Source of the DNA: Elusimicrobiaceae bacterium
GTDB taxonomy: Bacteria; Elusimicrobiota; Elusimicrobia; Elusimicrobiales; Elusimicrobiaceae
Assembly (NCBI GenBank): GCA_045643265.1
Contig: JAZUKK010000026.1
Location: 9,250 to 73,249, forward strand
Length of the DNA: 64,000 nucleotides
Reading direction: 5' to 3'
The position numbers and the translations under genes are program-made. Each line of letters starts with the position of its first letter. Within the stretch, counting starts at the first letter, position 1. The notes beneath the pieces are model-generated. The model was not told the DNA's origin, did no database searches, and saw nothing but the letters and a program-made list of their open reading frames with translations. This document shows, one piece after another, positions 13,759-14,661 of this stretch.

Positions 13759-14661
13759 TTAGGGAATTAAATAGATATTCTCTCTTGTCCAAGACTCTAT
13801 CGGACTTCCGCCCATTCCTTTACAAACCTGATTGGTAATTGTATTGTCCTTCGCGGCACGGCAATAATATTTACCTTGTGAATTTCCCCTAAAAAAATAA
13901 TTTAACTGCATACTACCATTTGGAACAGGTAACACCGCCGTAATCCATTTGTTGGAAACTTCTAAGACATAATGAGTTCTATTGGGTAATATGAGTTTGT
14001 CATTTTCGTTCATATATGTTGAATACCGCGCGCCCGGCCATTCTATCGGCAAGACGGTAAAATCGGTGGGGTAAGCACCCGTTTCCAAGTAAACGGCATT
14101 GACGGCCGTTTCAAGGGTCTTGATATTAACCAACACTTCGCTGATCCGGCTACGTACAACCGCTTTTTGATACTGCGGTAACGCCACCGCCGCCAGTATG
14201 CCAATGATTAAAACGACGACTAGTAATTCAATAAGTGTAAAACCGCTGTTATCAAAAAAGCGGTGAGATTCCAAATCAAGTTTGCAATGACTATTATATT
14301 TTTTGCTATCATCCCGAACGCCTAAAGTGCCGTCACCCTGAACTTGATTCAGGGTCTCGCCGTTCTCTTTTCCCCTGCCGTCATGCTGAACTTGTTTCAG
14401 CATCTCGTCGTTGTCTTTCCTGTTGTCATCCCCGAGTGTTTCTATCGGGGATCTCCTCCTTATAGTTGTTCCCAAGCGGTGGAGATTCCCGATTACAAAT
14501 TTCGGGAATGACCTTATTTTATTTATGCTGTCATCCCGTACGCCCAAAGTGTTGTCATCCCGGACTTGATCCGGGATCGCGTTGTTCACTACAATAAGGT
14601 GAGACTCTGAATCAAGTTCAGAGTGACGGCAAGAACAACTGCCTAATATTTTATTTTCCAT
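13759..14661 (-). CDS. Type IV prepilin (PilE-like) with a 140-aa REP-derived leader
   Basis: [25 protein letters not shown] at G140|F141 (F codon at 14241). C-terminal Cys pair (YYC...VCK). AAGGAG lies 9 nt before the ATG at 14661. Confidence 0.85.
   Translation of the reverse strand: [300 protein letters not shown]
14266..14628. repeat. Cluster of 9 GTCA-tagged REP-like hairpins inside the pilin leader
   Basis: Units at 14266-14291, about 14308-14329, 14331-14357, 14379-14405, 14424-14454, 14483-14512, about 14529-14551, 14553-14578 and 14602-14628. Confidence 0.9.

Follow-up and report, generated by a model that had tools for sequence, protein, structure and literature searches.

The leaders of class III signal peptides described so far span 6-26 aa, with <10-18 aa for type IVa and 15-30 aa for type IVb and Flp proteins (PMC4471445). 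Short palindromic repeats inside protein-coding genes are known from Rickettsia, where the Rickettsia palindromic elements (RPEs; Ogata et al.) insert in frame (PMC10969869). The CGTC-tagged repetitive extragenic palindromic (REP) sequences (Di Nocera et al. 2013) have no dedicated transposase, and their clusters also occur inside open reading frames (ORFs) of 43-82 aa; REPs are mostly extragenic and lie downstream of genes (PMC3733652). Here we examine a type IV pilin gene in which a REP array stands within the leader coding sequence. The gene occupies positions 14661-13759 (minus strand) of a 64,000-nt stretch of DNA, the window of this study (C26:9250-73249, where C denotes a contig), taken from the 1.42-Mb, 35-contig genome of an Elusimicrobiaceae bacterium of the gut (G000). 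Its 300-aa product begins with MENKILG, continues with 132 repeat-derived codons and only then reaches the prepilin cleavage motif G|FTLIELL. In our preferred reading, which we hold with moderate confidence, the long leader would be translated from M1 and then removed by the prepilin peptidase PilD, and the in-frame repeats would be tolerated as neutral or selfish passengers.

A REP array inside a prepilin leader

The downstream part of the ORF was recognized as a pilin by family models and by comparison with solved structures. The Pfam model N_methyl (PF07963) matched residues 138-161 with 32.5 bits (cut-off 21.2), and TIGR02532 matched residues 139-161 with 31.7 bits (cut-off 16.3). The class III motif thus located (N_methyl / IV_pilin_GFxxxE; 14179-14250, on the minus strand, as are the 5' element, the insert and the mature part) has G(-1), F(+1) and E(+5) followed by ~20 hydrophobic residues; the Gly(-1) codon, GGT, encodes G140 (14244-14242) and is followed by the codon of F141 (14241-14239). 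In a sequence search of the Protein Data Bank (PDB), residues 1-70 of the mature part aligned with residues 1-70 of 1AY2/2PIL (E 2.3e-11), and further matches were to 1OQW, 5KUA and the GspG entry 5WDA. With F141 thus matched to the first residue of mature pilins of known structure, we predict PilD cleavage between G140 and F141. A first-pass annotation, made from the letters of the window alone, had placed the G|FTLIELL site at the same 140/141 junction, and the N_methyl, TIGR02532 and solved-pilin alignments agree with it. The predicted mature pilin is 160 aa long (13762-14241) and ends at a TAA stop (13759-13761); judged from an AlphaFold model and the family alignment, it consists of a helix (143-194) followed by a beta sheet. 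Cys267 and Cys280, among other columns, are invariant in the pilin family alignment. The AlphaFold run, which used a 9-sequence family alignment, gave predicted local distance difference test (pLDDT) scores of ~85-96 per 10-residue block for residues 141-300, with the helix and 8 strands; residues 1-136 scored <50 and were modelled as unstructured. Foldseek found no match in the PDB with E below 0.49 for a query that included the 136 disordered residues.

The genome encodes the machinery that such a protein would use. A single PilD gene (260 aa; A24_N_bact and Peptidase_A24 domains) is the only one for a prepilin peptidase and lies on contig C23, and four T2SSE ATPases and two secretins are also encoded. 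The PilD gene adjoins a pilin gene with the canonical leader MENKMLGG (C23:8772-9642), and between the two, upstream of the pilin promoter, is a three-unit REP array (8910-9038).

Counted from the sole ATG preceded by a Shine-Dalgarno (SD) sequence, the leader of the gene under study is 140 aa long and falls outside the 6-26 aa of a short leader. The ATG (14661-14659) opens MENKILG and stands 9 nt from the SD sequence AAGGAG (14676-14671), as the first-pass annotation had read it from the same letters and as the ORF and SD coordinates confirm; this SD is conserved in every locus that has the 5' element described below. The leader is hydrophilic, with a maximum 15-residue hydropathy of 0.43 and a net charge of -3. 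The inserted array (14245-14640) is 396 nt or 132 codons long (S8-S139), is free of stops, and encodes a peptide predicted to be hydrophilic and disordered. It had been described at first pass as nine hairpins over ~360 nt with no stop. The absence of stops stands, and both figures need revision, the 396 nt holding seven hairpin units in full and a further two as half units. Perfect 8-bp stems closed by loops of 5 or 9 nt were found in six of the seven full units, the other one having a single stem mismatch, and both half units encode TLGVRDD.

Read in the direction of the gene, the array begins with REP unit 1 (14601-14627; peptide RHSELDSES), which has a perfect 8-bp stem and a 5-nt loop, and unit 2 (14554-14580; AIPDQVRDD), also with a perfect stem. 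A half unit (14530-14551) separates these from a REPIN-like inverted doublet (14425-14512) made of two units with 9-nt loops (14482-14512 and 14425-14455), whose 35-nt arms (14425-14459 vs 14478-14512) are 74% complementary, as in an inverted dimer. Two further units, encoding EMLKQVQHD (14380-14406) and ETLNQVQGD (14332-14358), are followed by the second half unit (14308-14328) and by a unit encoding HCKLDLES (14265-14291), which has the one stem mismatch and belongs to a recurrent 3' module, KKYNSH(S/C)...(D/N)N(S/N)G. The array closes with a small terminal hairpin (ACCGCTTTT/AACAGCGGT, 14242-14264), the 3' arm of which takes in the Gly(-1) codon GGT. The RNA of the array region has a predicted folding energy of -156.3 kcal/mol, compared with -108.3 +/- 5.8 for shuffled sequences (z = -8.25), and the minimum-energy fold joins distant inverted units. 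No Rfam family came near its gathering score over 13600-14900.

Upstream of the array the gene has a 5' end that it shares with many paralogs. The conserved element (14662-14733) consists of a -35 sequence TTGACT (14728-14723), an extended -10 sequence TGcTAATTT (14709-14701), an imperfect palindrome and the 5' untranslated region (UTR). We read the -35 and -10 sequences as a candidate promoter, and a consensus promoter scan did not pick it out. When the upstream regions of 24 loci were aligned with MAFFT, column identity was 80-100% from CTTGAC to the ATG. The element as a whole, ~85 nt with the -35, the extended -10, the palindrome, AAGGAG and an ATG encoding M-E/K-N-K-I/L-L-G, is common to ~26 loci. 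The 23-nt imperfect palindrome (at 14663-14715, and present in ~26 loci) carries the AAGGAGC ribosome-binding site in one arm, and its arms differ exactly at GG (GCTAATTTTT vs AAAAAGGAGC). It could be an operator, or a stem that masks the ribosome-binding site, common to the whole paralog set.

The paralogs also suggest what the leader looked like before it acquired repeats. The genome has ~58 pilins of the G|FTLIELL type, all type IVa pilin or pseudopilin paralogs, and about half of them have leaders of 4-11 aa. In five paralogs this promoter, SD and ATG are followed by an intact 8-aa leader that starts MENK(I/M), and on their evidence the ATG and first 7 codons of the gene under study (MENKILG, 14641-14661) appear to be the front of an ancestral 8-aa leader, MENKILGG. 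Because the same 5' element, SD and ATG stand before these 8-aa leaders, the array is, on this comparison, an insertion within the leader coding sequence and does not merely precede the gene as a spacer.

In the mechanism that we favour, transcription would start from the promoter and 5' UTR common to ~26 paralogs and translation from the conserved SD-ATG (MENKILG...), and the ribosome would traverse the 396-nt array, which splits the ancestral 8-aa leader between its two final glycine codons. The 140-aa leader, hydrophilic and disordered, would remain in the cytoplasm while the pilin helix anchors in the membrane N-in, and the single prepilin peptidase would cleave after G140, giving a normal 160-aa pilin and discarding the repeat peptide. 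For the topology and the cleavage on the cytoplasmic side we rely on what is established for class III signal peptides (PMC4471445). The leader would be the one coding segment whose sequence and length are of little importance, so that inserts that preserve the frame, lack stops and are hydrophilic would survive. Repeats would spread, and be reshuffled among paralogs, via recombination between the 5' element and the codons of the N-terminal helix. We infer the start at M1, the cut at G140 and this mode of spread from the comparisons of loci, genomes and predicted proteins reported here.

If the array were a non-coding 5' UTR or spacer, the true start would lie near G140, at a TTG at -11 perhaps served by a TATAAT in the 3' module (AAAAAATATAATAGTCATT), and the long ORF would be an artefact. 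We regard this as highly improbable. The TTG at -11 (14274-14272), inside the HCKLDLES unit, is the only in-frame start within 30 codons of G140, and the in-frame ATG at -54, further upstream in the EMLKQVQHD unit, is the other candidate; neither has an SD, which bears out the first-pass statement that no ATG with a ribosome-binding site would give a normal short leader. The module with the TTG at -11, including its TATAAT, is present at 9 loci with the 5' element, 2-3 loci have an ATG at -2 or -3 (MG|F, MYG|F), some of them with an SD-like motif, and REPs at N-termini have been cautioned to be often extragenic (PMC3733652); all this would fit a start near G140. However, a consensus scan found no promoter-like site on the gene strand within the array, and across the family the 30 codons next to G(-1) lack any ATG, GTG or TTG at 3 loci, and other array endings (KNNYG, ARTYG and ERIAG) offer no usable start. 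Most of the other loci have only TTGs without an SD, and the sole start common to all loci is the conserved SD-ATG. A start near G140 would also leave unexplained the phase of 19 of 20 arrays with the SD-ATG, the 0 stops seen against ~82 expected and the exclusive use of a hydrophilic frame, to which we now turn.

Frame preservation among sister genes

We tested frame preservation on the 20 loci where the 5' element and an array precede a pilin N-terminus. All but one are open and in frame from the conserved ATG to G|F, with leaders of 26, 35, 35, 56, 57, 59, 66, 82, 83, 85, 97, 102, 104, 115, 139, 140, 154, 158 and 186 aa. At the sole out-of-frame locus (C7:132255) the pilin body is cut to 24 aa, and another 5' element (C10:99550) leads only into a broken stub, with no pilin behind it; a broken leader combined with an intact pilin was found at no locus. 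The mature domain is full (147-177 aa) behind 16 of the 19 in-frame leaders and only 35-58 aa long behind the other three (C5:28810, C11:137982 and C20:19508). Beyond the first ~70 residues the mature domains are at most 45% identical between paralogs, a divergence which argues that the genes are old and have been maintained.

The open frames of the leaders are not a general property of the repeats. Among arrays of at least 4 strict units, the leader arrays were open in the pilin frame in 9 of 9 cases, compared with 4 of 20 other arrays open in any of the six frames, and two of those four are themselves pilin-upstream, at a contig end or at a broken locus. The first-pass annotation had cautioned that intergenic REP clusters are open as well, which is correct for some clusters in the window and does not hold genome-wide by this count. 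Frames open by construction were ruled out, as the same unit types are closed in non-leader arrays. Gaps between homologous array segments were multiples of 3 in 38 of 122 cases in leaders (31%) and in 49 of 460 elsewhere (11%; Fisher p = 2e-7). In the raw leader counts many gaps are not multiples of 3, BLAST having paired non-equivalent units, and the tests of phase and net gap are the more meaningful. The proposal made at first pass, that insert lengths be checked for multiples of 3, thus gave a positive answer both in the 19 of 20 loci in frame and in the indels.

Sequence change within the leaders points the same way. In pairwise comparisons of homologous leader segments, differences per synonymous site (pS) were 0.15 and per nonsynonymous site (pN) 0.11, and the ratio pN/pS of 0.71 suggests that the leader peptide itself is barely constrained. 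Nonsense changes were seen 0 times in these comparisons as against ~82 expected at random, a figure that derives from comparisons not mutually independent. One unit type is open in two frames, as VIPNLIWNL, with a grand average of hydropathicity (GRAVY) of +1.38, or as HSKLDLES (GRAVY -0.79), and all 20 leader copies are in the hydrophilic frame. No leader contains a hydrophobic stretch, the maximum 15-residue hydropathy being at most 1.28.

Several points weigh against translation and removal of the long leader. A leader of 140 aa is without precedent next to the described range of 6-26 aa (PMC4471445), the strong structure of the mRNA (-156 kcal/mol) might impede translation, and REPs at annotated N-termini often prove to be extragenic with the start mis-called (PMC3733652). 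With 35 contigs in the assembly and six contig ends in arrays, the linkage of array to pilin body could in places be mis-joined. The loci are not independent, since the phase of homologous units agrees in 191-201 of 207 alignments, and 5' regions homogenized among the paralogs could mean that frame preservation is partly inherited and not selected. Finally, an intergenic array (C11:36983-37444) that is 86-96% identical to part of the leader studied here has a 153-aa open frame in the same phase, suggesting that recent copying can keep a frame open for a while. This array lies downstream of a short-leader pilin, has no pilin behind it and looks like a recent copy of leader-array DNA.

These points also enter into a different explanation, which we consider quite unlikely, namely that the genes with arrays have been silenced, are in decay or serve as a store of pilin cassettes that are not expressed, and that their arrays are in frame by descent from a single one, which spread through gene conversion and unequal crossing-over of in-phase units too recently for stops to build up. 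The shared phase of homologous units, the open frame of the non-leader copy and the truncated mature parts at three in-frame loci would all be expected of such genes, as would the 15-aa leader that is all the closest species has at the syntenic locus. The 5' regions, moreover, are 80-96% identical among paralogs despite very different C-terminal domains (at most 45% identical), a pattern that lends indirect support to the earlier suggestion that the arrays promote recombination among pilin paralogs. On the other hand, the leader segments differ by 11-15% per site with no nonsense change, 16 of the 19 mature domains are intact and old, and broken leaders occur only with broken pilin bodies. In addition, other species have arrived at this layout with repeat families of unrelated sequence, and leaders range from 4 to 140 aa inside one pilin subfamily.

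Repeats in the genome and in related species

Across the genome we counted 244 strict REP units, each 27-31 bp long (35 at most when flanks are included), and no array had more than 9 of them. They are high-copy, short imperfect palindromes that fall into several stem families (ATGCTGAA, ATTCCAAA, ACCCTGAA, ATCCCCGA and others), and CGTCA occurs in 105 of the units, TGTCA in 90 (both YGTCA) and AGTCA in 35. Seventy-two of the units (30%) lie inside pilin leader ORFs, so that the set is not predominantly extragenic as REPs usually are, and when the leader peptide was compared with the whole genome, only pilin leaders and short intergenic frames matched. The target is small, intact leaders amounting to ~1.4 kb as against ~177 kb of non-coding DNA. 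Since simple tolerance is insufficient to place 72 of 244 units in ~1.4 kb, either recombination between conserved flanks or targeted insertion is needed. The test for enrichment of REPs in leaders that had been proposed at first pass is positive on these figures, and the accompanying idea of leaders as a safe harbour or sink for REPs fits them. Stems are perfect in 74% of leader units and in 84% of units elsewhere.

We looked for a mobilizing enzyme and found two Y1 transposase genes (PF01797), at C11:55085-55567 and C32:43994-44542. Both are IS200 TnpA-like and neither has a strict unit within 1.5 kb, and a RAYT was accordingly rejected as mobilizer of the repeats. Six contig ends fall inside leader arrays or the recurrent 3' module (C16:65, C31:65, C20:78075, C26:138194, C5:113 and C10:127464); arrays of this kind break short-read assemblies. 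Elsewhere in the window, REP-derived sequence is open into the 5' end of a membrane-protein ORF at 53206-53652 (C26:62455-62901; GANNEIPYQVRVDG). The real start of this ORF is likely the downstream MLKPIILL, which would make it a case of a mis-annotated N-terminal REP.

The concentration of units in leaders raises the question of whether the array is selected for a function, as mRNA structure that tunes translation or stability, as a pro-domain that delays assembly or as a substrate for recombination. This possibility overlaps with the reading that we prefer, and taken by itself we consider it unlikely. It is favoured by the enrichment, roughly 30-fold over the share of tolerated target, by the stems that remain perfect in most leader units, by the strong RNA fold and by the concerted evolution of pilin 5' ends. 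Against this, a pN/pS of 0.71 implies almost no constraint on the peptide, the length and composition of the array are free to vary (18-178 inserted codons), and the repeat families vary from species to species. Long leaders also coexist with leaders of 4-8 aa in paralogs and within the subfamily, and recombination between conserved flanks can account for the enrichment.

The genomic setting of the gene was compared with that of related species. The gene is convergent with groEL, and between the two is a probable bidirectional terminator hairpin (CTCCCAAAAC/GTTTTGGGAG, 13695-13731), read from the sequence, with T runs on both strands; a consensus terminator scan passed over it because it has too few G-C pairs. 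Given the convergent neighbour and the shared T-run hairpin, the pilin gene probably forms its own transcription unit. The pilin that occupies this position next to groEL in the nearest species (G005 and G008) has a leader of 15 aa and a C-terminal domain that is not orthologous. A search with the C-terminal domain in 60 species of the genus returned nothing above 41% identity, and a set of 5.8 billion proteins contained no strain-level variant of the pilin. Members of the same pilin subfamily were found in other metagenomes at 40-48% identity, with leaders of 4, 21, 38, 39, 41, 51, 54 and 78 aa and with other repeat sequences.

Long leaders are also numerous in another species of the genus (G047), whose 1.8-Mb genome encodes 150 or more pilin N-termini, compared with ~58 in the genome studied here. 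In a sample of 31 pilins at 30 loci of that species, nine leaders were 4-21 aa long (e.g. M..NTRRG|F) and ~18 were roughly 50-190 aa long, continuous from the SD-ATG through unrelated repeat families, with none broken. One locus of this species (L084, on contig C4 of G047) has a leader with a duplicated fragment of the hydrophobic pilin helix, then more repeats and a second G|FTLIELL. It appears to be a partial tandem duplication, and would place a transmembrane segment inside the leader.

The borders of the inserts bear on how the repeats reached the leaders. Inserts of G047 (L065, L067, L083 and others) follow a copy of GGTTTTACGC (G-F-T; GGT TTT ACG C), and a second copy at their end forms the working G|FTLIELL; the left copy is degenerate in its Phe codon in most loci of that species. 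In form this direct repeat resembles the duplication of a 10-bp target at the cleavage site. In the genome under study the arrays are flanked by GGCGGTT-like and AGCGGTT-like sequences, and the last small hairpin includes the Gly(-1) codon. From these borders one might propose that the repeats home to the prepilin cleavage-site codons, as a site-specific DNA parasite of the type IV pilin G|F codons, a proposal that we put forward tentatively and think rather unlikely to be right. Were it true, it would define a class of site-specific DNA parasite, with recombinational shuffling of pilin 5' ends as a possible side effect.

Comparison with described systems

Our searches of the full-text literature found no paper on prepilin leaders that are built from repeats or at least 100 aa long. 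The gene and its paralogs share with known class III signal peptides Gly(-1), Phe(+1), Glu(+5), ~21 hydrophobic residues, a hydrophilic leader and the presence of an A24 peptidase gene; they differ in that the known leaders are short basic peptides, whereas the one described here is repeat-built and 140 aa long, and those of its paralogs reach 186 aa. Should these long leaders indeed be synthesized and cleaved off, then prepilin peptidases and the signal recognition particle (SRP)/Sec route would have to tolerate N-terminal extensions 5-7 times as long as the longest described, with a bearing on how class III signal peptides are recognized and on gene callers, which would give such genes wrong starts or annotations.

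The Neisseria repeat tracts, namely the CTCTT repeats of Opa and the poly-G tract of PilC, lie in leader or signal-peptide coding regions and switch surface proteins on and off. Like the arrays described here, they are repeats that occupy the expendable N-terminal end of the coding sequence of a gene for a surface structure, within a large paralogous family. However, they are simple-sequence tracts whose changes in length shift the frame, whereas here the repeats are complex hairpins, 19 of 20 loci are in frame and there is no sign of frame switching.

With the CGTC-tagged REPs the units share a size of 20-40 bp, imperfect palindromes in hundreds of copies, frequent inverted dimers and the lack of a dedicated transposase in our searches, and their YGTCA sequences may correspond to the CGTC tag. 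They differ in that 30% of the units are in one class of ORF segment, in frame and contributing up to 178 inserted residues. GTAG REPINs, by comparison, require a cognate RAYT transposase flanked by the repeats, and the genome contains no REP-flanked RAYT.

The RPEs offer a further parallel, drawn from their published description. In both cases short palindromic repeats stand in frame in coding genes, are apparently tolerated as extra peptide and are frequent in one lineage, and in-frame insertion into ORFs was seen here at 19 of 20 loci. An RPE, however, is a single element of ~100-150 bp with a conserved peptide that enters many unrelated genes and is retained in the mature protein, whereas the present units, of 27-35 bp, are stacked in arrays and in this genome were observed in just one gene family, in a cleavable leader that precedes the predicted cut, so that the mature product should be free of them. 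The RPE precedent would in this way be extended from an insert that is retained to one that is discarded, and the leaders provide a natural experiment on selfish DNA in coding sequence, in which the peptide is nearly unconstrained while frame, stop avoidance and hydrophilicity are strictly kept. The same process may help to explain the upkeep and reshuffling of the very large pilin families of the Elusimicrobiaceae (~58 members in 1.4 Mb here and at least 150 in the sister species). The interpretation is supported at the comparative level and would combine two known kinds of element, in-frame palindromic repeats and class III signal peptides: with the same layout in ~20 sister genes and in related species, the leader, which in our reading is cut off and discarded, seems to offer selfish repeat DNA a preferred refuge.

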